From: Candidatus Spongiisocius variivorans
Lineage (GTDB): Bacteria > Actinomycetota > Acidimicrobiia > Spongiisociales > Spongiisociaceae
Reading direction: 5' to 3'
NCBI GenBank assembly: GCA_028279005.1
Contig: JAPYNS010000180.1
Location: forward strand, 1-31,777
Length of the DNA stretch: 31,777 bases
The position numbers and the translations under genes were made by a program. Below the pieces are notes generated by a model. That model did no database searches and was not told the origin of the DNA. It saw only the letters and a list, made by a program, of their open reading frames with translations. Positions 3,624 through 25,806 of the stretch are shown here, in pieces (position 1 is the stretch's first letter; every line of letters starts with the position of its first letter).

Positions 3624-3673
3624 CCACGGGACCTGCGATCACCGACGAACGCGCACAGCGTGACGCGCCCTAG
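3624..3673 (+). repeat. Interspersed element copy A (right arm only)
   Basis: ccacgggacctgcgatcaccgacgaacgcgcacagcgtgacgcgccctag aligns with copies B-E. Confidence 0.8.
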
Positions 3674-3682
3674 CATTTCCTG

Positions 3683-4219
3683 ATGGACGACTCTTGGAAC
3701 CCCGGCCGATTGCTGCCCGATCCGCCTTCCGGCGAGGGAACCCAGCAGGCGGCCGTACTGGCCCCTCTGTACGAGGACGGCGACGATCTCCGGCTGGTCC
3801 TGATCCGTCGTCCACTCCACATGCCCACCCACGGTGGGGATGTGGCCTTTCCGGGCGGTAAGCCGCGCCGTGGGGAGAGGCCTCTTGATACCGCCCTGCG
3901 CGAAGCCCGGGAGGAGGTCGGTATCGAGCCCGGCACGGTCGAGGTTCTCGGCTACCTGCCCGCCATCCACACGGTTAGTTATCCGCTGCTCGTGGTGCCG
4001 GTAGTCGGAATGCTGCCTGGGGTACCCAGCCTGCGACCCGATCCGAACGAGGTGGATCGGATCCATACTCCGACCATGAGTTCCCTCCTCGACGTGACCC
4101 GCTGGCATAGCAAGTCCTGGAGAGGTCACCAGGTGTTCGTGTTCGACCTCGATGGCGACACCTTGTGGGGAGCGACCGCTCGGATGGTTCGCCGGCTGAT
4201 CGGCCTGGAGACCTACTAG
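3683..4219 (+). CDS. Nudix hydrolase, CoA pyrophosphatase (NudL/Pcd1-like)
   Basis: AAVLAPL, HGGDVAFPGG, Nudix box GGK...ALREAREEVGI, C-terminal LWGATA. Confidence 0.9.
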   Translation: MDDSWNPGRLLPDPPSGEGTQQAAVLAPLYEDGDDLRLVLIRRPLHMPTHGGDVAFPGGKPRRGERPLDTALREAREEVGIEPGTVEVLGYLPAIHTVSYPLLVVPVVGMLPGVPSLRPDPNEVDRIHTPTMSSLLDVTRWHSKSWRGHQVFVFDLDGDTLWGATARMVRRLIGLETY

Positions 4220-4296
4220 ATGGCGTGGTCAGTCTGCGGGGACCGACCACGGGACCCGCGACAACTGCTAACGCGCAGAGCGTGAACACGCCCTAG
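4216..4296 (+). repeat. Interspersed element copy B (CTAG on both sides, internal inverted repeat)
   Basis: CTAG(4216)-atgg-cgtggtcagtc-tgcggg-gaccgaccacg-ggacccgcga...agcgtgaacacgcc-CTAG(4293). Confidence 0.85.
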
Positions 4297-4319
4297 CTCC
4301 GAAGGGGTTCTGGAAGTGG

Positions 4320-5111
4320 TCACCGGCCGGCGGCTGATCGACCGGTAACGAGGTGGCGGACGGCGTCGTGGAGTTCCCCGTTGGTTGCCAGGCCGGTTCC
4401 GGACCGGAACGACAGTTCTCCGGATAGGTCCGTGAACCTGCCGCCGGCCTCCGGGAGGATGACGGCCATCGGCGCCACGTCCCACGGATTGACGATCGGG
4501 TCGAGCATGGCGTCCACCCGCCCTGAGGCCACCAGGCTGTAGCCGTAGGCGTCACCCCATCCCCGCAGGATCATCGGCCCGGCGTGGAGGCGCTCGGCCA
4601 TGTCCTCGGGAAGGAGGTCGAACCCGCTGGTGCACATCGCGGCGCCCTCCAGATCGGATCGGCGGCGAACCGATACGGCGCGCTCGTTCAGGTAACAGCC
4701 CCGGCCCCGGCCTGCCGCCATGGTCTCGCCAAGAGCGGGGAGGTCTATGACTCCCACCGCCACACCGTGCTCATCCTCGAGAGCGAGCAGTGTGGCGAAG
4801 AGCGGCACGCCCCGGATGAAGGACTGGGTGCCGTCGATGGGATCGATGAACCAGGTGCGTCCGGACGAACCGCCGGTGTCGGCGAATTCCTCCCCAACGA
4901 TTCCATCCTCGGGGAAGTGCTGGGCAAGTTCGGAGCGCAGGAGCCGCTCCGCCGCCCGGTCGGCCTCTGTAACCGGGCTTCCGTCCTCCTTGACCATCAC
5001 CTCCGGGGAGCCGTCGTACCAGCGCATCGTGACCTGTCCGGCCGACTTGGCCAGGTGGACGGCCTGGCTGAGCAGCGACTCCTCGACCGGGGGTCCGGCG
5101 GCGCGGCTCAC
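4320..5111 (-). CDS. Inositol monophosphatase family protein, probable histidinol-phosphatase (HisN-like)
   Basis: KEDGSPVTEAD, GEE, WFIDPIDGT, GWGDAYGY, WDVAP. GTG start at 5111 overlaps the cimA stop (GTGA). Confidence 0.85.
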   Translation of the reverse strand: MSRAAGPPVEESLLSQAVHLAKSAGQVTMRWYDGSPEVMVKEDGSPVTEADRAAERLLRSELAQHFPEDGIVGEEFADTGGSSGRTWFIDPIDGTQSFIRGVPLFATLLALEDEHGVAVGVIDLPALGETMAAGRGRGCYLNERAVSVRRRSDLEGAAMCTSGFDLLPEDMAERLHAGPMILRGWGDAYGYSLVASGRVDAMLDPIVNPWDVAPMAVILPEAGGRFTDLSGELSFRSGTGLATNGELHDAVRHLVTGRSAAGR

Positions 5112-6709
5112 GGTCGGCTGCCGACCGCGCCGGCCGGCTCGGCTCCCGCCCGCAGCAGACCGATGACGATCCCGTCCGCCATCGCCTCCCACGTCGCTTC
5201 GATGATGTTCTCGTGCACCCCGATGGAGCCCCAGGTCGAGGGGCCGTCGCTCATTTCGATGAAGACTCTCACGACCGCGGCCGTTGAGGCGGTGGCGTCC
5301 AGGACACGTACGTTGTAGTTGGTGAGGCGTAGGGTGTCCAGCTGGGGATAGTGGTCCTTCAGCGCTTCCCGCAGGGCATGGTCGAGGGCGTTGACCGGCC
5401 CGTTGCCCTCACCGGTCCGTATCACCCGCTCGCCCCGGATCACGATCTTGACCGTGGCTTCCGCCATGACCAGTGCATCGGATCGATGCTCCGTAGAGAC
5501 CCGGAACGACTCCAGTTCGAAAAAGTCATGCGACCATCTGGCAGCCTGCCTCAGCATCAACTCGAACGATCCGTCAGCGGCCTCGAAGTGGTAGCCCCGG
5601 TTCTCCATGTGCTTGATCTCGTCGAGCACCTCGGCGGCCTGGTCGCCTGTCAGCGCGACGCCCAGATCCCGAGCCTTGGCGAGTACGGTCGAACGGCCCG
5701 ACAACTCCGAGACCACGGTACGGGTTCGGTTGCCTACCTGACCCGGGTTCTGGTGCTCGTAAGCGTCGGGACGCCGGGCCAGGGCCGAGGTGTGCAAGCC
5801 CGCTTTGTGGGTGAATGCCGACGCGCCCACGTACGGACTGTGAGGGTTGAGGCTGACGTTCACGATCTCCGCGATGTGGTGGGCGATGGGCGACAGTGTC
5901 TCGAGCCGGTTCGGATCGAGCACCGGGACTCCCATTTTCAGCACCAGGTCAGGGAGAATGGTGGAGAGGTCGGCGTTGCCGGTCCGCTCCCCGTAGCCGT
6001 TGATGCATCCCTGCACCTGGCGGACCCCCATCTCGACCGCTGCCAGCGACGACGCCACCGCGCAACCGGCGTCGTTGTGGAAGTGCACTCCTAGTTCGGC
6101 ATGGGGAAGGGCGCCTTGGACCCGGTCGATGGTGCCGGCGATGTCCGGCAGCAGGCGCCCTCCATTGGTGTCGCACAGGACCAGGCGCTCGGCGCCCTCC
6201 TCGAACGCGGCCCTCAGCACCCTCAGGGAGAACTCCGGGTTCGACCGGTAGCCGTCGAAGAAGTGCTCCGCGTCAAAGAAGACCCGCCGGTCGTGGCGTC
6301 TCAGGTACGCCACCGACTCGGCCACCATCGCGACTCCGTCGTCGAGGTCGGTCAGCAGGGCTTCCCGGACGTGGTAGTCCCACGCTTTCCCGACGATGCA
6401 TACGGCCTCGGTCTCCGCTTCGAGCAGATTGAGCATCTGCGGATCACCCTCAACAGATCGGCGGGGCCGGCGGGTGGCGCCGAACGCGGTCAGGGAAGCG
6501 GTGCGGAGGTTGACTTCGGAACGCGCCCGCTTGAAAAACTCGCTGTCCTTGGGGTTGGCGCCGGGCCATCCGCCCTCGATGTATCCGACCCCGAGATCGT
6601 CCAGCAGAGCGGCGATCCGCAGCTTGTCGGAAACGGTCAGCGAGATGCCTTCTTGCTGCGCCCCGTCTCGCAGGGTGGTGTCGTAGATTTCGAGTCGGGG
6701 ATGTGGCAT
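5108..6709 (-). CDS. cimA: Citramalate synthase
   Basis: YDTTLRDGAQQEG, EGGWPGANPKD, FFDAEHFFDG, GYGERTGNA, C-terminal regulatory domain GNGPVNALD. Real start at ATG 6709 after AGGAGAGGGAGG; the 969-aa ORF call is over-extended. Confidence 0.9.
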   Translation of the reverse strand: MPHPRLEIYDTTLRDGAQQEGISLTVSDKLRIAALLDDLGVGYIEGGWPGANPKDSEFFKRARSEVNLRTASLTAFGATRRPRRSVEGDPQMLNLLEAETEAVCIVGKAWDYHVREALLTDLDDGVAMVAESVAYLRRHDRRVFFDAEHFFDGYRSNPEFSLRVLRAAFEEGAERLVLCDTNGGRLLPDIAGTIDRVQGALPHAELGVHFHNDAGCAVASSLAAVEMGVRQVQGCINGYGERTGNADLSTILPDLVLKMGVPVLDPNRLETLSPIAHHIAEIVNVSLNPHSPYVGASAFTHKAGLHTSALARRPDAYEHQNPGQVGNRTRTVVSELSGRSTVLAKARDLGVALTGDQAAEVLDEIKHMENRGYHFEAADGSFELMLRQAARWSHDFFELESFRVSTEHRSDALVMAEATVKIVIRGERVIRTGEGNGPVNALDHALREALKDHYPQLDTLRLTNYNVRVLDATASTAAVVRVFIEMSDGPSTWGSIGVHENIIEATWEAMADGIVIGLLRAGAEPAGAVGSRP

Positions 6710-6754
6710 GCGAGCTTCCCTCCCTCTCCTGACCGCCGGCGGTACGTTCCTTGC

Positions 6755-6786
6755 AAATGAAGAGCCCTGCGCCGGGGCGCAGGGCT
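6755..6786 (-). terminator. Attenuator terminator upstream of cimA
   Basis: On the minus strand: AGCCCTGCGC-cccg-GCGCAGGGCT (10-bp perfect stem) followed by CUUCAUUU, about 45 nt before the cimA start. Confidence 0.7.
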
Positions 6787-6813
6787 GCGGGCACAGGGTC
6801 GGATCCCTATGCC

Positions 6814-6846
6814 CTAGTCGATAATGATCCCGGTGTGGATACTCAT
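6814..6846 (-). CDS. Putative Ile-rich leader peptide MSIHTGIIID
   Basis: ATG AGT ATC CAC ACC GGG ATC ATT ATC GAC TAG: 4 of 10 codons are Ile, three consecutive. It lies between a sigma70-type promoter and the terminator upstream of cimA. Confidence 0.75.
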   Translation of the reverse strand: MSIHTGIIID

Positions 6847-6856
6847 CTCCCGCCGG

Positions 6857-6885
6857 AGTGTCGCTGATCCGATCCGGGATGTCAA
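6857..6885 (-). promoter_or_regulatory. Sigma70/SigA-type promoter for the cimA leader
   Basis: Minus strand TTGACA (6885-6880), 17-bp spacer, GACACT (6862-6857), then 10 nt to the leader ATG. Confidence 0.6.
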
Positions 6886-6922
6886 CACCTATTCCCCACA
6901 CGCGCGCGGGGTGGCTGGTCCG

Positions 6923-6939
6923 GCGAGATGTCATCTCGC
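6923..6939. promoter_or_regulatory. Perfect palindrome, candidate operator
   Basis: GCGAGATG-T-CATCTCGC between the divergent cimA and trpS starts. Confidence 0.35.
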
Positions 6940-6991
6940 AGTCATCCCGTGGTCCGCGTAACCTCTGGGCGAGCTGAGCGGAGGTGATGAG

Positions 6992-7969
6992 GTGACCACC
7001 AGAAGGGTCTTTTCGGGCATCCAGCCCAGCGGTGACATCCACATCGGCAACTACATGGGAGCGCTCCGTAACTGGGTGGCCATGCAGGACGAGTACTCCA
7101 CGGTCTATTGCGTGGTCGATCTCCATGCGTTGACCCTCCCTCAGGATCCGGCCGAGTTGGCGGCGGCCCGGGTGCGGACCGCCAAGATCCTGCTGGCGGC
7201 GGGGATCAATCCCGGCCACTCCCTGGTCTACTACCAGAGCCAGGTTCCGCAGCACGCTGAGCTGTCCTGGATCATGGGAACCTTCGCCTCGATGGGCCAG
7301 TTGGGCCGGATGACTCAGTACAAGGAGAAGGAGGACAAGGGCGGGCAGAACCTGGGTCTGTTCTCCTATCCCGTGCTGATGGCAGCCGACATACTCGTCC
7401 ACCGTGTGCACGCTGTGCCGGTCGGCAACGACCAGACCCAGCACCTCGAGTTCACCCGTGATCTCGTGGATCGGTTCAATGCCCGGTACGGGGACTTCTT
7501 CCCGGTGCCGGAGCAGATAACGCCCCCGGTGGGAGCCCGGGTCATGTCCCTGAAGGACCCGAGCTCCAAGATGTCCAAGTCCGATCCAGATGGGGGCTCG
7601 CGGATAATCGTGACCGACGACGGCGACACCATCGTGAGAAAGGTCCGGCGGGCGGTGACCGACTCGGGCACCCGGGTCGCCTACGACGTGGAGCGCAAGC
7701 CGGGGATCAGCAACCTGCTGGACATCCTGTCCGCCTTCACGGGCCGTAGCGTCCACCAACTGGCGGAGGAGTACCGCTCCGTCGGTTACGGCCGCTTCAA
7801 GGAGGCCGTGGCCGAGGCGGTGATCTCCGGTCTGGCGCAGGTACGCCGAGCCTATCTGGACCTGGACGACTCCGAGGTGGAGCGGATCATGGCAGAGGGC
7901 GCGGAAGCGGCCCGGACCAGGGCCGAGGAGACCATGACCGGAGTGCGCCGCCTCATCGGACTCGGTTGA
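6992..7969 (+). CDS. trpS: Tryptophan--tRNA ligase
   Basis: FSGIQPSGDIHIGNY (HIGH), YPVLMAADIL, VPVGNDQTQHLE, KMSKS. Confidence 0.97.
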   Translation: MTTRRVFSGIQPSGDIHIGNYMGALRNWVAMQDEYSTVYCVVDLHALTLPQDPAELAAARVRTAKILLAAGINPGHSLVYYQSQVPQHAELSWIMGTFASMGQLGRMTQYKEKEDKGGQNLGLFSYPVLMAADILVHRVHAVPVGNDQTQHLEFTRDLVDRFNARYGDFFPVPEQITPPVGARVMSLKDPSSKMSKSDPDGGSRIIVTDDGDTIVRKVRRAVTDSGTRVAYDVERKPGISNLLDILSAFTGRSVHQLAEEYRSVGYGRFKEAVAEAVISGLAQVRRAYLDLDDSEVERIMAEGAEAARTRAEETMTGVRRLIGLG

Positions 7970-8064
7970 TCGTGGTCGGTCAGCGTGCTCTGGACCGCCA
8001 TCCCGCAGACCGACCACGGGACCCGCGAATACTAACGAACCCTCATAGTGTGAACATACACTAG
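7968..8064 (+). repeat. Interspersed element copy C
   Basis: gatcgtggtcggtc-a-gcgtgctctggaccgcca-tcccgca-gaccgaccacg-ggacccgcga...agtgtgaacataca-CTAG. Confidence 0.85.
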
Positions 8065-8067
8065 TTA

Positions 8068-8095
8068 TAACTACCAGCTAGCAACTACAGACTAG
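8068..8095 (+). repeat. 7-bp-period micro-array (taactac cagctag caactac agactag)
   Basis: CTAC/CTAG at 8071, 8078, 8085 and 8092; overlaps the last codons of the CPBP gene. Confidence 0.6.
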
Positions 8096-8813
8096 ATACT
8101 GGTGTCGGGAAGAAGTACAGCACTACCAGCGTCATCAGGTTGAAGCCGCTGTGGGCGAAGATCGATGGGCCGAGGATCCCGGTCCGCGCCCTCAGGGTTC
8201 CGAGGAAGATCCCGAATGCGAACAGGACCAGGAGGGTGACAGCTCCGGCCGCGCTGTACAGAGACGGATCCACCAGGTGGATGGCGCTGAAGATGACCGA
8301 GGTGACGATTACCACCGCCATAGGTTTGCGGTTGTTTCCCGAGAGCATCCGGAAGACGAGCCCGCGGTGGATCATCTCCTCGACGACCGGGCCCAGCACC
8401 GTGACGCTCACCACCACGGCCGCCATGGTGGTGGTTCCACGGGTCTCCACAACCGCCTCCACGATGGCCTGGGGTGTCTCGTCCTCGATGCCCAACAGGA
8501 TGCGCAGGCCGGCGGCGATCCAGGCGAGCGGTATCGAGATGGCGGCGCCAACCAGTACCCATCGGGCGTGGCTCGGCTCCACCTCGAAGGCCAGGCCCTC
8601 GGCCAGGCCAGGGAACCCGCGAGCCCTTCCGATCAATGTGAGCGCGCCGATGTGACCGAGGTTCTGGCAGGGGATGAGGACCCAGAAGTAGAAGTCGGCG
8701 TCGGTGGCATCCGCGCCGAGGGCGCTGGCGAGCAGTCCTGCGACCACCGCCCCCAGGACTCCTGCCCCCAGGACCATAAGGGCGTCGTACCAACGCCAGT
8801 GAGCTTCGAGCAC
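8085..8813 (-). CDS. CPBP/CAAX (Abi) family intramembrane glutamic endopeptidase
   Basis: Motifs GPVVEEMIHRG, FSAIHL, AHSGFN, plus TM helices. Confidence 0.9.
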   Translation of the reverse strand: MLEAHWRWYDALMVLGAGVLGAVVAGLLASALGADATDADFYFWVLIPCQNLGHIGALTLIGRARGFPGLAEGLAFEVEPSHARWVLVGAAISIPLAWIAAGLRILLGIEDETPQAIVEAVVETRGTTTMAAVVVSVTVLGPVVEEMIHRGLVFRMLSGNNRKPMAVVIVTSVIFSAIHLVDPSLYSAAGAVTLLVLFAFGIFLGTLRARTGILGPSIFAHSGFNLMTLVVLYFFPTPVSSL

Positions 8814-8825
8814 TGACCCGCCAGG

Positions 8826-9060
8826 CTAGTGCCCTGAGATCGTGGTCGGTCCGTGTTACGGCGGCGTGCTCTGGACCGCCACCGATGCCTCTGGATGCGT
8901 CCTGCATCCTCAACGTACCCTGCGGGTACACCTTCGTCAGCTGTCCTTGCCATAGACGCCGCTGGCGGCGCCGTACCCCACCACCGCCACCAACACCACA
9001 CAAACCAACCACGGGACCCGCGATAACAAGCGAACGCGCATAGCGTGAACACGCCCCTAG
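8826..9060 (+). repeat. Interspersed element copy D (longest, multi-hairpin interior)
   Basis: CTAG(8826)...gatcgtggtcggtc(8838)...gcgtgctctggaccgcca (8864-8881, 18/18 identical to copy C)...ccacgggacccgcga...agcgtgaacacgccc-CTAG(9057). Confidence 0.85.
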
Positions 9061-9125
9061 CCGCCCAGGACCGGATGCCGATCCAGGTCTGGTATTTTCT
9101 TGGAGCGCACTCGGAAGGTTGGCTG

Positions 9126-10286
9126 GTGGATATTTCAATAGGCATGGGTAAGGCGGGCCGGCGGGGCTACGGCTTCGACGACATATCCATAGTTCCCAGC
9201 CGCCGTACCCGCAATCCTGATGATGTCAACCTCTCCTGGGAGTTGGACGGCTACCGGTTCGACTTGCCGATGCTCGGATCGGCAATGGACTCGGCGGTAT
9301 CTCCCGCCACCGCGGTCGCCATCGGCCGGCTGGGAGGCTTGGGCGTGCTCAACCTGGAGGGCCTGTGGACGCGGTACCAGGATCCCGAACCGGTGTTCGA
9401 GGAGATAGCCACGCTGCCGGTCGCTAGCGCCACCGCCCGGCTCCAGGAGATGTACCGGGCGCCGATCGACCCGGATCTCATGCGAGAGCGCATCTCGTAC
9501 GTCAAGTCGGCGGGGGTGGTCGCCGCCGCCTCCCTCACTCCGCAGAGCGTGGAGCGTTACATCGACGGGGTGGTGGAGGCCGGGCTAGACGTCCTGGTGA
9601 TCCAGGGCACGGTGGTATCGGCCGAGCACGTCTCCAGCCGCGGCGATACCCTCGACCTGTCGTCCTTCATCGCCCGCCTGGACCTTCCCGTAATCGTGGG
9701 CGGCTGCGCCTCATACGCCGGAGCGATCCACCTGATGCGGACCGGCGCCGCCGGAATCTTGGTCGGGGTCGGTCCCGGCGCGGCCTGTACCACCCGGCGA
9801 GTGCTGGGTATGGGGGTGCCGCAAGCCACCGCAATCGCCGACGCCGCGGGCGCCCGGATCCGGTACCTGGCCGAGGCCGGCCGGTACGTCCACGTCATAG
9901 CTGACGGTGGTATGAGCACCGGCGGTGACATCGCCAAGGCGATCGCCTGCGGGGCGGATGCGGTGATGATCGGCTCCCCGCTCGCCGCGGCGGTCGAGGC
10001 GCCGGGGCGAGGCGCCCACTGGGGAATGGCCACCTTCCATCCGTCGGTTCCCCGGGGCACGAGGGTGATGACCGGGCAACTGGGCACCCTCGAGCAGATC
10101 CTGGTGGGTCCGGCGCGTGAGAACGACGGCCGCCAGAACCTGTTCGGTGCGTTGAGGCTGGCCATGGCAAGCACGGGATACGCCGACCTCAGGGAGTTCA
10201 ACGAGGCGGCGTTGGTGGTGGCGCCCTCGATCCGGACCGAGGGAAAGGCCCTCCAGCAGAGCCAGCAAGTCGGAATGGGTTCTTGA
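9126..10286 (+). CDS. guaB: GuaB3-type IMP dehydrogenase family protein
   Basis: [37 protein letters not shown], catalytic loop [20 protein letters not shown] start at 9126 after GGAAGG. Confidence 0.9.
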
Positions 10287-11845
10287 AGCCACCCCCGTCG
10301 ACCGGTGGGGGAGTCCTCCATCGGCCGGTGCTGGTAGTCGATTTGGGCGCCCAGTACGCCCAACTGATCGCTCGCCGGATCCGCCAGGCCGGGGTCTTCT
10401 CGCTGATCGTGTCGCGGGACATCACCGTCGAGGAGGCGCGGGGCCACCACCCGCTCGGTCTCGTGCTGTCCGGAGGCCCGCTGTCCGTCTACTCCGAAGA
10501 CGCCTATCTGATCGACCCCGGCCTCGTGGAGATGGGGGTGCCCATCCTCGGTATCTGCTACGGCCACCAGCTCCTGGCCCACCTGCTGGGGGGAACGGTG
10601 GAGCGCACCGGCGAGGCCGAGTACGGGCGTACATCACTCGAGGTGACTGGCGATTCCCTGCTGCTGGCGGGAACTCCGGCGCACCAGGATGTCTGGATGA
10701 GCCACATGGATGCGGTCACCGGTCCTCCGCACGGGTTTGCCGCAGTGGCCACCACGCCGGGCTCGCCCGTGGCGACCATGGAGAGCCCGGAGCGGCGCAT
10801 GTACGGCGTCCAGTTCCACCCCGAGGTGGTCCATACCGACCACGGGTTCGACGTCATGGAGCGGTTCCTGCGGGATGCGTGCGGAGCAGCACCGGACTGG
10901 ACCGGCGGGTCGATCATCACCGATCAGGTCAGTGCCATCCGGGCCACGGTGGGAGATGCGCGGGTTGTCTGCGGCCTCTCCGGCGGGGTGGACTCGGCGG
11001 TTGCCGCGGCCTTGGCCCACCGGGCGGTCGGGGACCGCCTCACCTGCGTGTTCGTGGATCACGGGCTGCTGCGTGCGGGCGAGGCGGAGCAGGTAGACGA
11101 GACCTTCCGCCGGAACTTCGAGGTCGATCTGGTGCAGGTTGACGCCACCGACCGGTTCCTGGATGCGCTGACCGGAGTGGCCGATCCCGAGCAGAAGCGC
11201 CGGATCATCGGTGAGCTCTTCATCCGAACCTTCGAGGAGGCGACCACTGGCATTCCTGATGCCCGGTTCCTGGTCCAGGGGACGCTGTATCCGGATGTCA
11301 TCGAGTCGGGCGGCGCCTCTGCCGCCACGATCAAGACCCACCACAACGTGGGCGGGCTGCCCGACAACCTCGGATTCGAGCTCATCGAGCCGCTCCGCGA
11401 TCTGTTCAAGGACGAGGTCAGGGCGGTGGGGGAGGAGTTGGGGCTTCCCGAGGAGATCGTCTGGCGGCAGCCCTTCCCCGGTCCCGGCCTGGCCGTGCGG
11501 GTGATCGGCGAGATAACCCGGGAGCGGCTGGAACTTCTCCGGGCGGCCGACGCGATCGTGACCGAGGAGATCCGGCGGGCCGGGCTCTACCGGGAAATAT
11601 GGCAGTCATTCGCCGTGCTGCCCAACGTCAGGACGGTAGGGGTGCAAGGCGATGGACGGACCTATGCCCACGCCCTAGTGGTGCGAGCAGTCACCTCCGA
11701 GGACGCCATGACAGCGGACTTCGCCCGGATCCCGTACCCCGTTCTAGAACGGATCTCCAGCCGGGTGATGAACGAAGTTCCGGGAATCAACCGGGTGGCC
11801 TACGACATCTCCTCGAAGCCCCCCTCCACCATCGAATGGGAGTAA
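10283..11845 (+). CDS. guaA: GMP synthase (glutamine-hydrolyzing)
   Basis: [63 protein letters not shown]. Confidence 0.97.
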
Positions 11846-11876
11846 CCTCGCCTGCCGGCAGAGCCGTGCAGCTCGA

Positions 11877-13180: not shown

Positions 13181-13211
13181 CATGTCATGGGCACTGGTTA
13201 ACATGACCGGG

Positions 13212-16765: not shown

Positions 16766-16783
16766 CGGGCGGCCGAGCCTCTC

Positions 16784-17176
16784 ATGCCTCGACGGATCCT
16801 GGTTGCCAAGCCCGGCCTGGACGGTCATGACCGGGGCGCCAAGGTGGTGGCCAGGGCGCTCCGGGATGCGGGGAACGAGGTCATCTACTCCGGACTTCAC
16901 CAGACTCCGACCCAGATCGTCGAGACCGCCATCCAGGAGGACGTGAACGCCATCGGTCTCTCGGCCCTGTCTGGCGCCCACATGACCCTCTTCCCCGCGG
17001 TCCTCGAGCTGCTCCGGGAGCGGGCTGCGGACGACATCGTGGTCTTCGGCGGCGGGATTGTCCCCGAACGTGATGCCGAGATGCTCAAGGAGCAGGGGAT
17101 GGCGGCGATCTTCACCCCCGGAACCCCCCTGGCCGAGGTGACCCGATGGGTCGAGTCCAACGTCCGCTCCCGGTGA
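16784..17176 (+). CDS. Methylmalonyl-CoA mutase cobalamin-binding subunit
   Basis: [43 protein letters not shown]. Confidence 0.93.
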
Positions 17177-17379
17177 GGAACAGACCGCGGGGACGCCCGG
17201 TCGCCGGATCGGAGCAAGGCGCCCGGCGCCCGACGTGGGTGTCCCGCGATCAGTTCATCCGCGACGTCCTGCCCTACCAAGCCGATCCGGGCCTGACCGA
17301 GGATCTCGCGTTGCTGATGGCCGAGACCACGGACGAAGATGTCCAACACGTGACCGCCTCGAGGCCGATTCGGATCTGA
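17173..17379 (+). pseudogene. Probable remnant of a Phd/YefM-type antitoxin (C-terminal half)
   Basis: RGRPVA...RRPTWVSRDQFIRDVLPYQADPGLTEDLALLMAETTDED resembles, from memory, the C-termini of actinobacterial prevent-host-death antitoxins. The N-terminal DNA-binding part and a toxin partner are not seen. Confidence 0.45.
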
Positions 17380-17474
17380 CCAGCGGGCCGCACCGTCGGG
17401 TGGTGATTGGCTCCGGCAGATCGGCGGGCACGAAGGCCGCCCTCTCCGCTGATCAAGACCGTCTGGCGCCCGGA

Positions 17475-17480
17475 TAGAAT
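17475..17480 (+). promoter_or_regulatory. -10 box TAGAAT, probable leaderless sucC promoter
   Basis: TAGAAT lies 8 nt before the GTG start, with no Shine-Dalgarno sequence. Confidence 0.5.
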
Positions 17481-17488
17481 CACGGTCC

Positions 17489-18634: not shown

Positions 18635-19515
18635 GTATCTGGCTAGACGAGCGCAGCAGGGTGGTCTACCAGGGGCTGACCGGGCGCGCCGGCCGCTTCC
18701 ATGCGCTCCGGAACCGCGCCTACGGCACCCGGGTTGTGGCCGGTACCAACCCGTCCAAGGCCGGGACCTCGGTGGAGGGCATCCCGGTGTTCGCCACGGT
18801 CGGCGACGCGGTGGAGGCCACCGGCGCTGACGTTTCCTGCGTGTTCGTTCCCGCTCCCTACGTCAGGGGTGCGGTGGTGGAGGCGGCCGAGGGAGGCGTG
18901 ACCCTGGTGGTGGTGATCACCGAGGGCGTGCCTGCCAAGGACGAGGCCTGGCTGGGCGGCAAGCTCGGGCGTGATCACCCGGAGGTCCGGGTGATCGGTC
19001 CTAACTGTCCCGGTCTGATCAGCCCCGGCAAGGCCAATGTCGGCATCACCGCCAGCGACATCGCCCTGCCCGGCGGCCCGGTAGGCCTGGTCAGCCGCTC
19101 CGGCACCCTCACCTACCAGGCCCTCTACGAACTGAAGCAGGGCGGGATCGGGGTTACCACCTGCGTGGGGATCGGCGGTGATCCGGTTCCCGGGACGTCC
19201 TTTACCGACTGCCTGGCCGCTTTCGAGGAAGACCCCGAGACCGGCGCTGTGATGATGATTGGGGAGATCGGCGGGTCGGCGGAGGAGGAGGCGGCCGCGT
19301 TCATCGCCGAACACATGACCAAACCGGTGGTTGCCTACATCGCCGGGATCACCGCTCCACCGGGCAAGAAGATGGGCCATGCCGGGGCCATCGTCTCAGG
19401 CGGGAAGGGAACCGCCGCCGCCAAGATCGAGACCCTGGGTGCAGCCGGTGTGCGGGTGGGGGAGAGCCCGGCGGAGGCCGGGAGCCTCATGGTGGAAGTG
19501 GTCGCCGACCTCTGA
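18631..19515 (+). CDS. sucD: Succinate--CoA ligase alpha subunit
   Basis: QGLTG, IGPNCPG, SRSGTLTY, GIGGDP, GEIGG, KKMGHAGA (phospho-His). Confidence 0.97.
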   Translation: MSIWLDERSRVVYQGLTGRAGRFHALRNRAYGTRVVAGTNPSKAGTSVEGIPVFATVGDAVEATGADVSCVFVPAPYVRGAVVEAAEGGVTLVVVITEGVPAKDEAWLGGKLGRDHPEVRVIGPNCPGLISPGKANVGITASDIALPGGPVGLVSRSGTLTYQALYELKQGGIGVTTCVGIGGDPVPGTSFTDCLAAFEEDPETGAVMMIGEIGGSAEEEAAAFIAEHMTKPVVAYIAGITAPPGKKMGHAGAIVSGGKGTAAAKIETLGAAGVRVGESPAEAGSLMVEVVADL

Positions 19516-19572
19516 TGATCCGGGCGCCGGCTTGCTGAAGCGGATCTCACCACCGCCCTACCGATCCGGGGG

Positions 19573-21111
19573 GTGGTGAGCTTGAACCGCCGGGCACTCC
19601 TGTCGGTATTCGACAAGTCGGGGCTGGTCGAGTTCGCCACCGGGCTGGTCGAAGCGGGATGGCAACTGCTGGCGAGCGGCGGGACCGCCGCGGCCCTGGC
19701 GGGTGCCGGACTCGAGGTCACCGACCTGGCCGACCACACCGGCTTTCCGGCCATGCTTGGCCATCGGGTGGTCACGCTCCATCCGAAGGTCCACGGAGGC
19801 ATCCTGGCCGATCGATCGGACCCCGACCACCAGGCCGACATGGATCGGTACGGGATCGAGCCGATCGACCTGGTGGTGGTGAACCTCTACCCCTTCGAGG
19901 CCAAGCCCGGAGTGGAGACCATTGACGTCGGCGGTCCCACCCTCATTAGGGCGGCGGCCAAGAACCATCACCATGTCGGGGTGGTATGCGACCCGTCGGA
20001 TTACGCGGCTGTTCTCGACGAGATCCGCTCCGGGGGGTGGCTGTCTGGTCCGACACGCCGGTCTCTGGCCAGGAAGGCCTTCGCCCGCACCGCCGCCTAT
20101 GACGGAACGATCGTGAGCTGGCTCGACGATCACCACGAGGAAACCCTCCTCCCGCCGACCCTCCACCTTTCGTTGGAGCGGGCCGCAGTGCTCCGCTACG
20201 GGGAGAATCCCGATCAACCGGCAGCTCGCTATCTGCGCGTCGGGACCCCCGGCTCCGCGGAGGATGCCGAGGATTGGTGGAACGCCGTGGTCCAGCACGG
20301 GGGCGTGCCGCTGAGCTACCTCAACCTGCTGGATGCCGGAGCGGCCTGGGCCCTGGTCCACGACCTCGGTGATCAGCCGGCGGCGGCGATCATCAAGCAC
20401 GCCGGGCCGTGCGGCGCCGCTATCGGAGAGGATCCAGCCGGCGCCTACCGCAAGGCGCTGGAGTGTGACGAGAGGGCTGCCTTTGGCGGGGTGGTGGCCC
20501 TGAACCGGCCGGCGGATCTCGAGACGGCGGCGCTGGTTGATGGGGCGCCGCAAGCGGATGTCATCATCGCCCCCGGTTATGCCGAGGGGGTGGTCGAGCG
20601 GATCCGGGCTCGGCGAGCCGGCACCCGGGTCCTCGAAGCTCCGGCTCCGCGGCGCGCCGGCCGGACGGTGCGCCAGATCGAAGGGGGCTGGCTGGTGCAG
20701 GGCGTATCACCCGACGTATCGGGCAGGTCGGGATGGCGGGTGGGGAGCCGGCGCGATCCCGGCCATCTGGTGCAAGATGCCGAATTCGCGTGGCGGGTCG
20801 CCGCCCACGTGGCCTCCAATGCTGCGGTCCTGGCCAGGAACGGCACCGCCTTGGGAATCGGCGGCGGGCAGCAGGACCGGGTGGGAGCGGTGGAGATCGC
20901 TGTCCGCAAGGCGTCCGGACGGGCGGCGGGCGGGGTGTGCGCCTCGGATGGGTTCATCCCGTTCGCCGACGCGATAGAGGCGGCCGCATCCGCGGGCGTA
21001 GAGTTGATCATCCAACCCGGCGGCTCGGTGAACGACCAGGCGGTCGTGGAGGCGGCGGATCGGCTCGGCCTATCGATGATCTTCACCGGCCGGCGGCGAT
21101 TCCGGCACTGA
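19573..21111 (+). CDS. purH: Bifunctional AICAR formyltransferase/IMP cyclohydrolase
   Basis: RALLSVFDKSG, TLHPKVHGGIL, VVNLYPF, IDVGGPTLIRAAAKNH, LRYGENP, IIQPGGSVND, FTGRRRFRH. Confidence 0.95.
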   Translation: MVSLNRRALLSVFDKSGLVEFATGLVEAGWQLLASGGTAAALAGAGLEVTDLADHTGFPAMLGHRVVTLHPKVHGGILADRSDPDHQADMDRYGIEPIDLVVVNLYPFEAKPGVETIDVGGPTLIRAAAKNHHHVGVVCDPSDYAAVLDEIRSGGWLSGPTRRSLARKAFARTAAYDGTIVSWLDDHHEETLLPPTLHLSLERAAVLRYGENPDQPAARYLRVGTPGSAEDAEDWWNAVVQHGGVPLSYLNLLDAGAAWALVHDLGDQPAAAIIKHAGPCGAAIGEDPAGAYRKALECDERAAFGGVVALNRPADLETAALVDGAPQADVIIAPGYAEGVVERIRARRAGTRVLEAPAPRRAGRTVRQIEGGWLVQGVSPDVSGRSGWRVGSRRDPGHLVQDAEFAWRVAAHVASNAAVLARNGTALGIGGGQQDRVGAVEIAVRKASGRAAGGVCASDGFIPFADAIEAAASAGVELIIQPGGSVNDQAVVEAADRLGLSMIFTGRRRFRH

Positions 21112-21125
21112 GAAGGGACGGTCAG

Positions 21126-21986
21126 ATGGGCGCACAGGTCCTCGATGGCAAAGCAGTGGCGCGAGAGGTTCTGGACGAGACCGCCGAACGGGTGGCCGCC
21201 CTGCGCGACCGGGGAAAGGAAACCACCCTGGCGACCGTGCTGGTGGGGGATGACCCTGCCTCGGCCGCCTACGTTCGGTCCAAACGCAGGCGGGCCGCGG
21301 AGGTAGGCATTCGCTCCGTCCACCATGGACTAGGCAGCGACGTGTCCCAGGACCGGGTGGTGGACCTCCTCCGGCGTCTCAACGACGATCCATCCGTGGA
21401 TGGCATCCTGCTCCAGCTCCCCCTCCCGGACGGATTGGACGACCAGGGCACCGCGCTCGAGATCGATCCGGCCAAGGATGTGGACGGTCTTCATCCCACC
21501 AACCTCGGGATGATCGTTCTGGATCGTCCCGTGTTCGCCCCCTGCACGCCGAGCGGATGCCTCCGCATCCTTCAGCACTACGGCATCCCCATCCGGGGTG
21601 CGAACGTGGTGGTGGTGGGACGTTCCTTCCTGGTGGGGCGACCCCTGGCGTTGCTCTTGGCTGCGCGCGGCGCCGACGCCACGGTCACGATCGCCCACTC
21701 CCGGACGGCGGACCTGGCCGGCGTCGCCCGCCGGGCCGACATCCTGGTGGTGGCGGTCGGCAGGCCGGAGATGGTGACCGCCTGCTACGTCCGGGAGGGC
21801 GCCGTGGTGATCGACGTCGGAATCAACCGGAACGAGGCGGGTTCGCTGGTGGGAGACGTCAAGTATGACGAGGTGGCCGAGGTGGCGTCCGCCATCACCC
21901 CAGTACCCGGCGGCGTCGGTCCCATGACCGTGGCCATGCTCATGCACAACACGGCCATAGCCGCTGGGATGAGGGAGCCTACCTAG
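21126..21986 (+). CDS. folD: Methylenetetrahydrofolate dehydrogenase/cyclohydrolase
   Basis: LVGDDPASAAYV, GILLQLPLP, KDVDGLHP, PCTP, VGRSFLVGRP, ITPVPGGVGPMT. ATG at 21126. Confidence 0.96.
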   Translation: MGAQVLDGKAVAREVLDETAERVAALRDRGKETTLATVLVGDDPASAAYVRSKRRRAAEVGIRSVHHGLGSDVSQDRVVDLLRRLNDDPSVDGILLQLPLPDGLDDQGTALEIDPAKDVDGLHPTNLGMIVLDRPVFAPCTPSGCLRILQHYGIPIRGANVVVVGRSFLVGRPLALLLAARGADATVTIAHSRTADLAGVARRADILVVAVGRPEMVTACYVREGAVVIDVGINRNEAGSLVGDVKYDEVAEVASAITPVPGGVGPMTVAMLMHNTAIAAGMREPT

Positions 21987-21997
21987 GGGGTTGTAGA

Positions 21998-22039
21998 AGT
22001 GGTCAGTGGTCAGTGGCAACTACTAACTATCAACCAACC
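21998..22039. repeat. Inverted 7-bp-period micro-array between convergent folD and menC-like genes
   Basis: agtggtc agtggtc agtggca | actacta actatca accaacc. The second half is approximately complementary to the first (G-U pairs allowed). Confidence 0.6.
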
Positions 22040-22041
22040 GG

Positions 22042-23091
22042 TTAGAGGACGAATTCAGCCTTGCGTCTGACGCAGTCGGACAAGGGTGGCTCGGCGGTAC
22101 TCACCTCTACGCCGCGCTCGTCGAGCGGGAACAGAAGTCCGTCCACCACCTCCCATGCGTGAGGGGACGGGTCGGCGGCCAGCAGCCACAAGGGGGGGAC
22201 CAGGTCGGTATAGGAGACCGAAGGCCGGGAGGCCAGGGCCAGGGCGTGGGCCCGTCCCACCGAAGTCTCCACCAGGCCACCGATCTTGGCGCCTATCCCG
22301 GCCGAGGAGAGCATCTCGATCGACCTCAGCGTCGCGGCCGGTCCCAGGATGCCGGGCTTCAGGCTCACGAGGTCGGCCGCCTCGTGCTCGATGATCCGCT
22401 CCACGGCGGCCGCGGTGGTGGCCGGCTCGTCCAGGCAGATCGGGGTCGCCAACTGCCTGCGCAAGCGGGCGTGACCCTCCAGGTCCCGACCCGGCAACGG
22501 TTGCTCCAGGTAGGCCAGGCCCAGTTCGTCGAGCTCCGCCGGTGACGGGTTGTCCAGCCGGTAACTGCCGTTGGCATCAGCAGCGACCGAGAGGCCCGGG
22601 AACCGTTCGCGAACCGCCCTCACGTGGTCGACGTCCCTCCCGGGCTCGATCTTGATCTTCACCTGCTGGGCGCCGGCCTCACTCATCCGTTCGACCCGAA
22701 CGACCAGCAGGTCGGGTGACTCCTCCAGGCCGATGGCCGAGCATGCCATCGACGGCCCTCCGGATCCGCCGAGATAGGACCACAGCGGGACACCGGCTCG
22801 CCGGGCGGCCAGATCTGCCAGGGCCTGCTCGAGAGCAGCGGCCGCGGTAGCGGGAAGTCCCGCGCGCGCACTACCGAGCAAGCGAGCGCCCCGGGCGGTC
22901 AGCGCCTCCCAGACATCCCCCACGGTCTCGAGCGTGTAGGCGGGATAGGGCGCCGCCTCCCCCCAGCCGGTCGAGCCGTCCTCGGTGACTCCCACCAGTA
23001 CGACCCGACGTTCAGAGATGGCGGCGATGGAGTTGGAGAACCGGTGGCGGAGTGGAATGCCCAACTCGACCAAATGCAGGAAGCGGGACAT
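22042..23091 (-). CDS. o-succinylbenzoate synthase / N-acylamino-acid racemase (enolase superfamily)
   Basis: GWGEAAP, KxK motif VKIKI, metal ligands in DANG, LEQP and LDE, second Lys in LKPG. Candidate -10 box TATCCT 6 nt upstream. Confidence 0.85.
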
Positions 23092-23178
23092 GCCGGAAGG
23101 ATACCGGCGGCCATACCTGCGGAGTCACTAGGCTCGCGGCGGTTGGGAACGAGGAACTCAGTACAGACAGGAGTCGCC

Positions 23179-24450
23179 ATGCCGGACCGCATCACCATGG
23201 GAGAAGCGGGGCTGGAGGTACCCGACGAGCCGATCGTTCCCTTCATCGAGGGCGACGGGATCGGACCGGACATCTGGCGAGCCGCCAGAGAGGTGTTCGA
23301 TGCCGCGGTCGAGCACGTCTACGGGGGTGGTCGCCGGATAGCCTGGCACGAGATCTACGCCGGAGAGACATCCTTCAAGAGGAACGGCGAGTGGCTCCCG
23401 GACGAGACGATCGAGGCGTTCCAGGAATACCTCGTGGGCATCAAGGGCCCGCTCACTACTCCCGTCGGGGGCGGGATCCGTTCGTTGAACGTCACGATCC
23501 GCCAGACCCTCGACCTGTACGCCTGCCTCCGGCCGGTTCGTTGGTACCGGGGCATTCCATCGCCGATCCGCACCCCGCACCTGGTGGACATGGTCATCTT
23601 TCGGGAGAACACCGAGGATGTGTATGCCGGCATGGAGGTGGAGGAAGCCAGCGACGAGGCCGGAAGGCTGATCGGGTTCCTGGCTGATGAGTTCGGCTGG
23701 AAGATCAAGCCGGATTCCGGCGTGGGCATCAAACCCATATCGGACGGCGGCTCCAAGCGCCTGGTGCGCGCCGCCATCCAGTACGCCATTATGTTCGGGC
23801 GGCGATCCGTCACCCTCGTCCACAAGGGCAACATCATGAAGTTCACCGAGGGAGCCTTCCGGAACTGGGGATACGAGGTGGCCCGGGAGGAGTTCGCGAA
23901 GGAGACTGTCACGTGGGACGAGTGCGGGGGAGAGCCGGGTAACAAGATCCTGATCCAGGACGTGATCGCTGACGCCATGTTGCAGCAGGTGCTGACCCGT
24001 CCCGCAAACTACGACGTCATCGCCACCACCAACCTGAACGGCGACTACCTGTCGGACGCCCTGGCCGCCCAGGTGGGAGGCATCGGACTGGCGCCGGGCG
24101 GGAACATCAACTACGCCACCGGCCATGCCGTCTTCGAGGCCACCCACGGCACCGCTCCCAAGTATGCCGGATTGGACAAGGTCAATCCGGGCTCGGTGAT
24201 CCTCTCAGGCGCCAACATGCTCCGCTACATGGGTTGGCGGGGGGCCGCCGATCTGATCGAATCCAGCCTGGAAGCTGTGATAGGGGATCGGATCGTGACC
24301 TACGACCTGGCCCGGCTGATGAAATATTCCACCGAGGTCCGGACTTCCGAGTTCGCCGCCGCCCTGGTGGAGCGGATGCCGATCATCGAACGCTACGCCG
24401 CCATGAGCGGGACCCGGCGGGCGCCGAGCCACGTCCGGGCCTACATGTAG
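23179..24450 (+). CDS. icd: NADP-dependent isocitrate dehydrogenase (E. coli-type dimer)
   Basis: [72 protein letters not shown] 23179 after AGGAG. Confidence 0.97.
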
Positions 24451-24481
24451 GATCAAGTGGTCTGACCAGGGAGATCCGGAC

Positions 24482-25429
24482 GTGACCCGTTCGAAGAAGA
24501 TCACGGTTGTGGGCGCGGGAAAGTACGGTTCCTCCACCGCGCAACGGCTAGCGGCCATGGACATCGCCGACGAGGTGGTGATGACCGACATCGTGGAGGG
24601 GCTGCCCCAGGGTCTTGCGCTGGACATGAACCAGTCGCGTCCCGTCGAGCGGTACCGCACCCGGGTGATCGGTTCCAACGGCTACGAGGAGACGGCGGGG
24701 AGCGATGTCGGCATCATCACGGCCGGGCTGGCCCGCAAGCCCGGAATGTCGCGCATGGACCTCTTGGCGGTCAACGCCAAGATCGTCCGGCAGGTCACTC
24801 GAGAGCTGGTCGATCGGTCCCCGGATGTGACCATCATCATGGTGACCAACCCGCTGGATCAGATGACCGTCCTGGCGGCCGACGTGAGCGGCCTGCCTCG
24901 GCACCGGGTGATGGGACAGGCAGGTGTGCTGGACTCGTCCCGCTTCGCCCACTTCATCGCCGAGCGCCTCGGGGTGGACATTCTCTCGGTGGAGGCTCTG
25001 ACTCTAGGAAGCCACGGCGCGACCATGGTCCCCGTGCCGTCCCAGTGCTTCGTGGACGGGACGCCCCTGCCGCGGATCCTTGCCGAGGATGAAATCGAGG
25101 GGCTGGTGGAGAGGACCCGGGGTGGCGGTGCGGAGATCGTCGCATACCTGAAGACGGGGAGCGCCTTCTACGCTCCTTCGTCGGCGGCTGCCCTCATGGC
25201 GCGGGCGATCCTCAACGACGAGGGCCGGGTGGTGCCGGTATGCGCCTGGCTCACGGGGGAGTACGGGTTGTCGGACATTTACCTGGGCGTTCCGGCCCGT
25301 CTCGGCGCGGCGGGTGTGGGGGAAGTCGTCGAGTTGGACCTCACCGCTACCGAACGAGCCGGTCTCCACGCCGCGGCCGCCGCGGTGCGGGACAAGATTG
25401 AGGAGATGAAGACGATCCTGCGCGGCTGA
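24482..25429 (+). CDS. mdh: Malate dehydrogenase (LDH-like)
   Basis: ITVVGAGKYG, TAGLARKPGMSRMDLL, VTNPLD, LDSSRF, GSHG, GGAEIV..LKTGSA. Confidence 0.95.
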   Translation: MTRSKKITVVGAGKYGSSTAQRLAAMDIADEVVMTDIVEGLPQGLALDMNQSRPVERYRTRVIGSNGYEETAGSDVGIITAGLARKPGMSRMDLLAVNAKIVRQVTRELVDRSPDVTIIMVTNPLDQMTVLAADVSGLPRHRVMGQAGVLDSSRFAHFIAERLGVDILSVEALTLGSHGATMVPVPSQCFVDGTPLPRILAEDEIEGLVERTRGGGAEIVAYLKTGSAFYAPSSAAALMARAILNDEGRVVPVCAWLTGEYGLSDIYLGVPARLGAAGVGEVVELDLTATERAGLHAAAAAVRDKIEEMKTILRG

Positions 25430-25463
25430 GCATGTCCGTATCGTCCGGTAAGAGAGAAGCAAG

Positions 25464-25739
25464 ATGAATAAGCGTGATCTGGCAGATGTGGTCGCCTACG
25501 AGACCGGAACGGCACGGAGCCGGGCCATGGCGAGTGTCAACTTGGTGTTCGAGACCATCGCGGAAGCTCTCCGGGAGGGAGCAGACGTCCGGATCACCGG
25601 GTTCGGCACGTTCGAGGTGAGGCAACGCACGGCTCGGACCGGTCGCAATCCCCGGACAGGCGAGGCGGTCGATATCCCGGCTGCCAGAGTCCCCGCCTTC
25701 AAGCCTTCGAGGGCCCTAAAGGACCGCATCAACAGCTAG
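25464..25739 (+). CDS. hup: HU family nucleoid DNA-binding protein
   Basis: MNKRDL, ITGFGTFEVRQRTARTGRNPRTGE, PAFKPSRALK. Confidence 0.93.
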   Translation: MNKRDLADVVAYETGTARSRAMASVNLVFETIAEALREGADVRITGFGTFEVRQRTARTGRNPRTGEAVDIPAARVPAFKPSRALKDRINS

Positions 25740-25806
25740 TTGCTACAGACCGACCACGGGGGACCCGCGACTACTAACAAACGCTCATAGCGTGGTCACG
25801 CGCTAG
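25736..25806 (+). repeat. Interspersed element copy E (CTAG on both sides)
   Basis: CTAG(25736, HU stop)-ttgctaca-gaccgaccacg-ggggacccgcga-ctactaacaaacgctcatagcgtggtcacgcg-CTAG(25803). Confidence 0.85.

Follow-up and report, generated by a model that had tools for sequence, protein, structure and literature searches.

The MITEs closest in kind to the repeats described here are known from other bacteria. MITEPsy1 of Pseudomonas syringae is derived from an IS5-family insertion sequence (IS) (PMC3189936), and an IS982-derived MITE occurs in another symbiont, Cardinium (PMC9769881). Within the Actinobacteria, CTAG-flanked IS of the IS5 family have been described, namely ISMysh01 and the ISMt1/IS427-type elements (PMC9241763). 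A survey of transposon orientation recorded little or no bias in most IS5 subgroups, IS982 and IS630, and a strong bias in IS200/IS605, IS607, IS91 and IS110 (PMC3971601).

The window, a stretch of 31,777 nucleotides, comes from the genome of Candidatus Spongiisocius, a sponge-associated member of the Acidimicrobiia represented by a 2.6-Mb draft that is 83% complete. An earlier note made from the sequence alone had described five copies of a CTAG-ended repeat within it, and all five were found in place, on the + strand and between genes (Table 1). With a probability of roughly 0.7, these copies belong to a lineage-specific, non-autonomous, MITE-like family derived from an IS5-family IS whose transposase carries DUF4096 and DDE_Tnp_1. 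Similar to MITEPsy1 and the Cardinium MITE, the element is short (50-235 bp), non-coding, multicopy and located between genes; its terminal repeat and target site are common to a transposase-bearing IS, and its presence varies among relatives. Unlike in those MITEs, one end only matches the IS, the other being a shifted, degenerate repeat, and the interior is a separate hairpin element present in 0-5 copies. A further difference is that the copy-richest genomes are without a detected cognate transposase, and the orientation of the copies is locked to replication.

Table 1. Repeat copies and associated features of the window.
Feature	Coordinates	Strand	Structure and context	nhmmer E
Copy A	3624..3673	+	Right arm only, without left end; terminal CTAG 3670-3673; between divergent genes	4e-11
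Copy B	4216..4296	+	CTAG, 11-bp stem with 6-nt loop, right arm 4247-4296; terminal CTAG 4293-4296	
Copy C	7966..8064	+	Left end TTGATCG, stem around 26 nt, diverged right arm 8014-8064; CTAG 8061-8064	
Copy D	8837..9060	+	Long form: one ~160-bp hairpin module and right arm 9009-9060; CTAG 9057-9060	
Copy E	25736..25806	+	CTAG-TTG, right stem half, right arm 25754-25806; CTAG 25803-25806; between convergent genes	
Terminal repeat common to parent IS5-family IS	9044..9060	+	...GCGTGAACACGCC + CTAG in copy D; same block closes copies A, B, C and E	
Short CTAG/CTAC array, 7-bp period	8061..8098	+	Immediately 3' of copy C	

The initial CTAG of copy B contains the TAG stop codon of the upstream gene, and the TGA within the TTGATCG of copy C is the stop codon of the gene at 6992-7969. 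Copy D starts near 8837-8839. The adjacent CTAG at 8826-8829 belongs to the flank and lies outside the element; as it is found in relatives without copy D, it is an ancestral feature of the site. The left stem CGTGGTC(G/A)GTC of copies B, C and D pairs with GACCGACCACG, just as the note had proposed. The 15-mer CCACGGGACCCGCGA, with up to two mismatches allowed, gave five matches in the window against 0.56 expected, a number reached by none of 100 shuffled sequences. Four of the five matches are copies of the element, and the fifth (8608) is a chance match within a gene.

The relationship to an IS is carried by the right arm. Its end, ...TAGCGTGAACACGCC followed by CTAG, is identical to an IS inverted repeat over 15-16 consecutive bases plus the CTAG, and IS repeats matching the element end were found in G002, G007, G024, G042 and G043. 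The parent IS is ~840 bp long; one congener has it intact, and a sister genus has several copies of it. The copy in G002 (L034:1045-1891) measures 847 bp and contains two reading frames, with GGGCCTGTTCAC... and ...GTGAACACGCCC as its repeats; its relatives in the sister genus encode a fused 261-aa transposase, which matches NF033580 at 240.5 bits (cut-off 110) together with DUF4096 (PF13340) and DDE_Tnp_1 (PF01609). One of two readings put forward previously, an IS5-like terminal inverted repeat with a CTAG target, is therefore supported, as the right-arm end matches the inverted repeat of a CTAG-flanked IS5-family IS (NF033580, 240 bits). The parent IS, rather than the element, is of the same kind as ISMysh01 and the ISMt1/IS427-type elements: a length of ~840 bp, a DDE_Tnp_1 transposase with DUF4096 at its N-terminus, encoded in one or two frames, and terminal repeats flanked on either side by CTAG.

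Several IS copies contain the common repeat GGGCGTGTTCAC(G/T/A)CT and flanks of the form cTA|G...C|TAg. Element and IS alike are bounded by CTAG, the IS being flanked by TA within CTAG/YTAR. Unlike the 4-bp duplication of the actinobacterial elements, a 2-bp duplication of TA in a YTAR target is suggested for the parent IS by copies with unequal outer bases (TTAG...CTAG, CTAG...CTAA). Most complete copies of the element have CTAG or YTAR at both ends, which fits a TA duplicated within YTAR, as in the parent IS.

The element itself is modular and consists of a left end, CTAG-TTGATCG, 0 to 5 hairpin modules of ~160 bp, and a 50-bp right arm closing in CTAG. The long-hairpin module also occurs alone as a sister miniature element with 12-14-bp terminal repeats, and these hairpin-only copies are flanked as CTA|GTGGTC...GACCAC|TAG. 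The closed genome of a relative, G006, contains tandem arrays of the module (159 bp x5, 98% identity) between intact left and right ends. The copies had been taken for MITE deletion derivatives forming a nested size series. The series is real, and the term is apt in part, but the interior is a separate hairpin module which may be absent, partial, single or tandemly repeated. At least at site D, a single position, its form varies from one species to another, which points to change in place after insertion and not to separate jumps of different-sized elements.

The two ends are unequal in their likeness to the IS. The right end is a complete IS-type repeat, whereas the left end matches the IS terminal repeat at 9/14 bases and needs a 3-base shift to do so. 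Its first bases are more like the end of an IS982-family IS than the IS5-family repeat, a point which was counted against derivation from IS5. Given this incomplete match and the IS982-like first bases, movement of the element as a two-ended unit by one enzyme is at most a tentative proposal. The ends of the IS982-family IS, which also resemble the first bases of the left end, contain 8 consecutive bases like the hairpin-module repeat. These CTAG-flanked IS, found in G007 and sister genera, were rejected as partner of the right arm, which they leave unmatched; G007 has a single right arm.

Other candidate partners were rejected as well. For derivation from IS630/Tc1-mariner, with TA within CTAG, the partner DDE_3 transposase (PF13358) was found in 0/12 genomes of the genus searched. 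IS110-family IS are present in 5/5 genomes tested, but their ends are unlike the element. The IS110-family IS sit within a different repeat family. The only DDE_Tnp_1 fragment of the source genome, on contig C389, has ends unrelated to the element.

Across the source genome, a profile built from the five arms of the window gave 32 right arms at E<1e-4. The extrapolation in the note to hundreds per genome, from one copy per 6 kb, was thus far too high: density is about 1 per 80 kb and the window is a local cluster. The elements are small, non-coding and dispersed, their 32 right arms belonging to copies of 50-235 bp without a coding frame and with unrelated flanks. Six full-length copies of ~220 bp have flanks that are unrelated on both sides, and similarity among copies ends abruptly at the terminal CTAG. 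All of the copies (32/32) lie outside rough gene calls. The tetranucleotide CTAG is rare in this genome, with 1952 occurrences against 3632 expected; more than half of these are outside gene bodies, and most fall at the ends of genes, where many supply a TAG stop codon. The strictly intergenic placement of the copies fits this distribution.

Comparison of relatives confirmed that sites are gained and lost. At site A, a shortened remnant is present at the orthologous position in G001, G003, G009 and G010. Site B is filled only in the source genome; six relatives are without the element and three others have unrelated sequence, and divergence of the flanks precludes a base-perfect empty site. 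Site C has a degenerate copy in G005 and an unrelated short sequence in the other relatives. At site D the element is missing from G009 and G008, takes a stem-only form in G005 and has about 1.6 modules in G006. Site E is again filled only in the source genome, with 7-bp (CTAGNNN)n arrays in its place in four relatives and contig breaks there in G003; arrays related to that at 8061..8098 occur in relatives at sites C and E. The proposed comparison of filled and empty sites showed presence and absence at orthologous positions but gave no base-perfect pair, the species being ~85-89% identical, and this was counted against the derivation from IS5. Copies C and D do not bracket a mobile one-gene cassette, as the intervening gene is syntenic in relatives without either copy.

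The most unusual property of the family is its orientation. In G006, 23/24 right-arm copies are co-oriented with replication (p=3e-6). With dnaA at 450 kb, and GC skew positive over 520-2150 kb and negative over 2420-3500 kb, right arms are + at 10/10 sites of the first arc and - at 12/13 of the remaining sites; the single exception is in the first arc. In the source genome, contig GC skew read in the direction of the element is positive in 22/25 contigs (p=1.6e-4). The strand reading CTAG-TTGATCG...CTAG is the G-rich leading strand. For an element of the IS5 type, a strong replication-linked bias is not expected from the published survey (PMC3971601), and this too, like the absence of bias in the parent IS of sister genomes, was counted against the IS5-derived explanation.

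Single-strand transposition into the lagging-strand template leaves such a bias as its signature (PMC3971601, PMC6006769), and the other reading of the note, a REP-like element served by a RAYT, would account for it. The element would then be REP/REPIN-like or IS200/IS605-like and moved as single-stranded DNA at the fork by a Y1 HUH enzyme, with CTAG as cleavage tetranucleotide and the hairpins as recognition structures. The orientation rule in G006 and in the source contigs agrees with this, and there are further likenesses to both groups: intergenic hairpin repeats, asymmetric ends with subterminal hairpins, and long-hairpin modules in tandem clusters resembling BIME/REPIN arrays. The link between orientation and the replication fork is itself shared with IS200/IS605 (PMC3971601). 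However, PF01797 (Y1_Tnp), which also covers the RAYTs, matched in 0/12 genus genomes, three of them closed or nearly closed and G006 included, although control genomes do score. A lone TnpB fragment in G006 adjoins no copy, the right end is a DDE-type inverted repeat of the IS5 family, and the flanks fit TA duplication. This explanation, and with it an origin as a palindrome-associated element of IS200/IS605, is highly improbable.

Orientation could instead be set by survival. In each full-length copy the bottom strand has the more stable fold, by 7-18 kcal/mol, and copies placing this more stable hairpin on the lagging-strand template might be deleted. The hairpin-only family of G006 is biased in agreement with this (15 loci vs 5), but in the source genome hairpin-only copies are divided 4 vs 6, on short contigs with noisy skew. 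Short copies without the hairpin obey the rule as strictly (11/12 in G006), and those in unfavourable orientation, expected to arise after hairpin loss, were not seen. There is accordingly little chance that deletion of this kind explains the rule.

The same short copies would be explained if the host had adopted the right arm as a polar DNA site or structured RNA, with selection and not the insertion mechanism setting orientation. Neighbouring genes are arranged in varied ways around the copies and hence do not set their orientation; the parent IS in sister genomes is unbiased (roughly 10/18 co-oriented); and right arms at common sites are still recognisable where the flanks have diverged beyond alignment. 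For a structured RNA, the top strand folds no better than shuffled sequence (z=-1.3). The small right-arm stem has 20 top-strand against 8 bottom-strand wobble cells, but these represent only ~5 vs 4 independent variant types, and the suggestion of strand-specific wobble was dropped since it gives no strand-specific covariation. No Rfam 15 model matched the window at gathering score, and at E<=1 over 3500-9200 there were two chance matches only. Some 30 copies, in part of the genus and at sites gained and lost between species, are ill-suited to a core chromosome function. Host adoption is unlikely, if slightly less so than the two preceding explanations.

Under the favoured derivation from an IS5-family IS, the transposase would have moved the elements in trans. 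The note had supposed a partner acting in trans, and this holds more strongly than was meant: neither parent IS nor cognate transposase was found in the source genome (83% complete) or in the closed G006, with its at least 22 right arms. That the enzyme was not found where copies are most abundant, despite some source-genome copies being 96% identical to one another, weighs against the derivation. Most genomes of the genus may later have lost the transposase, which would leave most copies now stranded. The left end, with its degenerate repeat 3 bases inward, would render the element asymmetric, and insertion of an asymmetric transposition complex at replication forks is the favoured guess for the origin of the orientation rule. 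It is possible, if doubtful, that a DDE-type element derived from IS5 is fork-coupled in its insertion or survival almost as strictly as the HUH transposons, its parent IS not being so.

The repeat family itself is ordinary selfish DNA, a lineage-specific MITE whose IS5-family parent can be identified, and in these sponge-symbiont genomes it accounts for the repeats ending in CTAG and for many of the contig breaks. Two properties go beyond the routine. The first is an IS-type end joined to a separate hairpin element, which grows and shrinks where it stands. The second, for elements of the IS5 type, is the co-orientation of about 90-96% of copies with replication, a rule by which contigs of these draft genomes can be given a replichore direction. 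If the fork coupling is true, asymmetric ends would by themselves suffice to give a DDE transposition complex its replication polarity, or else the right arm would have become a polar chromosomal site. If the bias arises at insertion, the family would be a natural setting in which to test how transposon orientation is set by end asymmetry and the replication fork.

The five element copies described in the earlier note are present in the window. They belong to a MITE-like family that is real and lineage-specific, for which an IS5-family parent was identified and whose target is TA/CTAG. The core 15-mer (up to 2 mismatches) has 5 matches in the window vs 0.56 expected, a number reached in 0 of 100 shuffles; 4 of these matches are element copies and 1 is a chance match within a gene. 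The host draft genome (2.6 Mb in 443 contigs, 83% complete, 66% GC, the window being one entire contig) contains 32 right arms at E<1e-4, detected with a profile built from the five window arms. At approximately one right arm per 80 kb, the window is therefore a local cluster, and the earlier extrapolation to hundreds per genome was wrong. The terminal CTAG is an abrupt limit of similarity among the right arms, and all 32 copies fall outside gene calls, as rough gene calling places them.

The consensus of ~220 bp, derived from six full-length copies, begins with CTAG and the left end TTGATCG, followed by a ~160-bp hairpin, the 50-bp right arm and a final CTAG. The hairpin is imperfect, with stems CGTGGTCGGTCTG... 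and ...CAGACCGACCACG and the apex GTACCCTGCGGGTAC. Among element copies it is missing, reduced to the basal stem alone, single or tandem. The closed genome of a congener, G006, has five 159-bp units bounded by normal left and right ends, and its tandem arrays show recent in-place expansion without transposition. The hairpin also occurs alone as a sister family (at least 10 copies in the host genome), with clean terminal repeats and the flanks CTA/GTGGTCTGTCTG...CAGACAGACCAC/TAG.

When one genome per species was scanned for the exact pattern, the right arm was located in two records only: one is an Acidimicrobiia MAG, the other a Candidatus Spongiisocius chromosome. Copy D as a query gave matches in 10 of the 11 other genus genomes, chiefly via the hairpin part. 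Right arms are abundant only in the host genome, G006 and G005, with one copy each in G007 and G008, a patchy distribution across the genus. The unpublished genome G039 gave a marginal match only and is the basis of no claim.

The parent insertion sequence (IS) was located by tabulation of right-arm ends. An 847-bp segment of the congener G002 carries the right-arm terminal block at both ends, inverted, and codes for an IS5-type transposase in two overlapping frames. Its sister-genus relatives (825-840 bp) have a fused 261-aa transposase, which matched NF033580 at 240 bits (cut-off 110) as well as DUF4096 and DDE_Tnp_1. Their repeats read GGGCGTGTTCAC(G/T/A)CT; the right end of the element, on the minus strand, is GGGCGTGTTCACGCTAT, and 15-16 bases with the adjoining CTAG are identical to the IS repeat. 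This supports the proposal of a terminal repeat of an IS5-like element with a CTAG target. The alternative put forward with it, a REP sequence mobilised by RAYT, is not supported, as no Y1/RAYT gene was found in the 12 genus genomes; an IS630-type gene was likewise not found in these genomes. IS5-family IS flanked by CTAG are already known in Actinobacteria (PMC9241763), and there is precedent for IS-derived MITEs in symbionts (PMC9769881). Every parent-IS copy is bounded by cTA/G...C/TAg. Three copies with unequal outer bases (TTAG...CTAG, CTAG...CTAA) fit duplication of TA within a YTAR target, rather than of 4 bp. CTAG is scarce in the host genome (1952 observed vs 3632 expected), with over half of its sites outside gene bodies; the contact of element copies with stop codons is consistent with this.

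Three points fit less neatly. Among congeners, the parent transposase is intact only in G002 and decayed in G007, G001, G004, G005, G008 and G011. It was not found in the host genome (83% complete) or in closed G006, and G006, without a detected parent transposase, is the genome richest in copies. Two element copies in the host genome are 96% identical to each other. The IS match is confined to the right end of the element, as the left end agrees at 9 of 14 bases once shifted by 3 bases. At the left end the first bases, like the hairpin repeat, are closer to a CTAG-flanked IS982-family IS (NF033520, 178 bits) of G007 and the sister genera, where nearly all copies have these flanks. The right repeat of this IS and the hairpin-only repeat have 8 consecutive bases in common (TGGTCTGT), a likeness in sequence by which it may be the parent of the hairpin-only element. 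Because its left end and hairpin repeat resemble the IS982-family IS and its right end the IS5-family IS, the element may be chimeric, its ends coming from two related DDE families with a common target. One enzyme may move the whole element as a unit.

Two further repeats were observed. The GAACGCGAAAAWCGCG-type repeat has two copies with the hairpin module and two without in the host genome. Two IS110-family IS types are inserted at one identical point within it in G006, and the repeat thus looks like a specific IS110 target. The TGGAGCGTGGTCGGCCATGCC hairpin repeat is unrelated to the element except for a common GTGGTCGG.

Coordinates of the element copies and associated features (C, contig; L, locus; G000, host genome)
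Feature	Genome	Position	Details
Copy A	G000	window 3624-3673	
Copy B	G000	window 4216-4296	
Copy C	G000	window 7966-8064	
Copy D	G000	window 8837-9060	
Copy E	G000	window 25736-25806	
Tandem hairpin modules (159-161 bp) in single elements	G006	C1:3554305-3555133 (L026:1830-2624)	x5, 98% identity
Tandem hairpin modules (159-161 bp) in single elements	G006	C1:3590399-3590771	x2, 91% identity
Parent IS	G002	L034:1045-1891	
IS982-family IS, ~1.05 kb	G007	L031, L037, L040, L056-L062	10 near-identical copies, 2 of second type
IS982-family IS	G044, G015, G041	L064-L066, L072, L079, L085, L090	sister genera
Interspersed repeat GAACGCGAAAAWCGCG ... GGGCCCTCCCCC ... GCCRCCACC ... GCGCGTTCCGCC	G000	C236:136-591, C31:2478-2817, C197:3559-3844, C423:40-172	
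Same repeat	G006	L122-L124, L095, L100	
Short hairpin repeat TGGAGCGTGGTCGGCCATGCC...CGCTCCA	G000	C169:3, C237:18371, C270:10620, C429:33, C77:7036, C9:3423, C331:7954, C350:4159	at least 8 copies
7-bp-period arrays	G000	window 8061-8098, C283:6682-6723	
7-bp-period arrays	relatives	sites C/E (L128-L132), G008 site C	

Good synteny across the genus made a site-by-site comparison possible, in species only ~85-89% identical and with no base-perfect empty site among them. The element is found at sites B and E in the host genome only; at site E, four relatives have 7-bp (CTAGNNN)n arrays and the contig breaks in G003. Site C is occupied in the host genome and, by a degenerate copy, in G005. At site D the element is missing from G009 (…CCAGG-CTAG-CGGTCTGG…) and G008 but present in three species, each with a different interior (stem only, one module or ~1.6 modules). 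The insertions therefore occurred at different times, and the interior of the element alters in place. Copies C and D were considered as a mobile cassette around a membrane-protease-like gene (window 8085-8813), which was rejected as the gene is syntenic in relatives without either copy (L043-L055). An extra gene lies in the site D intergenic gap of G001, G002, G003 and G010 (L045-L048), its product having a secreted-like start and then Thr/Ala-rich repeats. The 7-bp-period arrays, (CTAG/CTAC + NNN)n, are found between convergent genes. Their variable triplet is often TTG/CAA. The arrays put TAG in every frame on both strands. Among short distances between paired CTAG sites, 7 bp is the commonest (15 cases). 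The arrays may be footprints left by the excision of CTAG-targeting elements, or may result from slippage.

Each of the five window copies is on the + strand, as part of a genome-wide orientation rule. In closed G006, where dnaA is at 450 kb, sampled GC skew has positive values between 520 and 2150 kb, is ~0 at 2280 kb and has negative values between 2420 and 3500 kb. The 10 sites between 705 and 2221 kb all have + right arms, and right arms are - at 11 sites from 2355 to 3590 kb and at 408 kb, the sole exception to the rule being at 875 kb; 23/24 follow the direction of replication (binomial p=3e-6). Read in element orientation, GC skew is positive in 22/25 contigs of the host genome (p=1.6e-4). 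All four flanking-gene arrangements are present (11, 7, 4 and 6), therefore transcription is not the determinant. The parent IS has no clear bias (~10/18 co-oriented in three sister genomes, symmetric replichores assumed). The hairpin-only family has a weak bias in G006 (15 loci vs 5) and none in the host genome (4 vs 6, where the contigs are short and the skew is noisy).

In a published survey, IS200/IS605, IS607, IS91 and IS110 had strong orientation bias, whereas most IS5 subgroups, IS982 and IS630 had little or no bias (PMC3971601). A bias such as that seen here is therefore unexpected for this IS class. Single-strand HUH transposition would orient copies, but no such enzyme was detected in the 12 genus genomes. 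Loss of copies with the more stable hairpin strand on the lagging-strand template agrees with the bottom strand folding 7-18 kcal/mol better, but G006 copies without the long hairpin obey the rule equally (11/12). A polar host function of the element is opposed by its patchy occurrence within the genus, and neither an Rfam match nor strand-specific covariation was seen. The favoured guess is that an asymmetric transposition complex, with insertion coupled to the replication fork, would produce the bias. The new features of this family are its modular architecture, the link between its right arm and the parent IS, and its replication-locked orientation.
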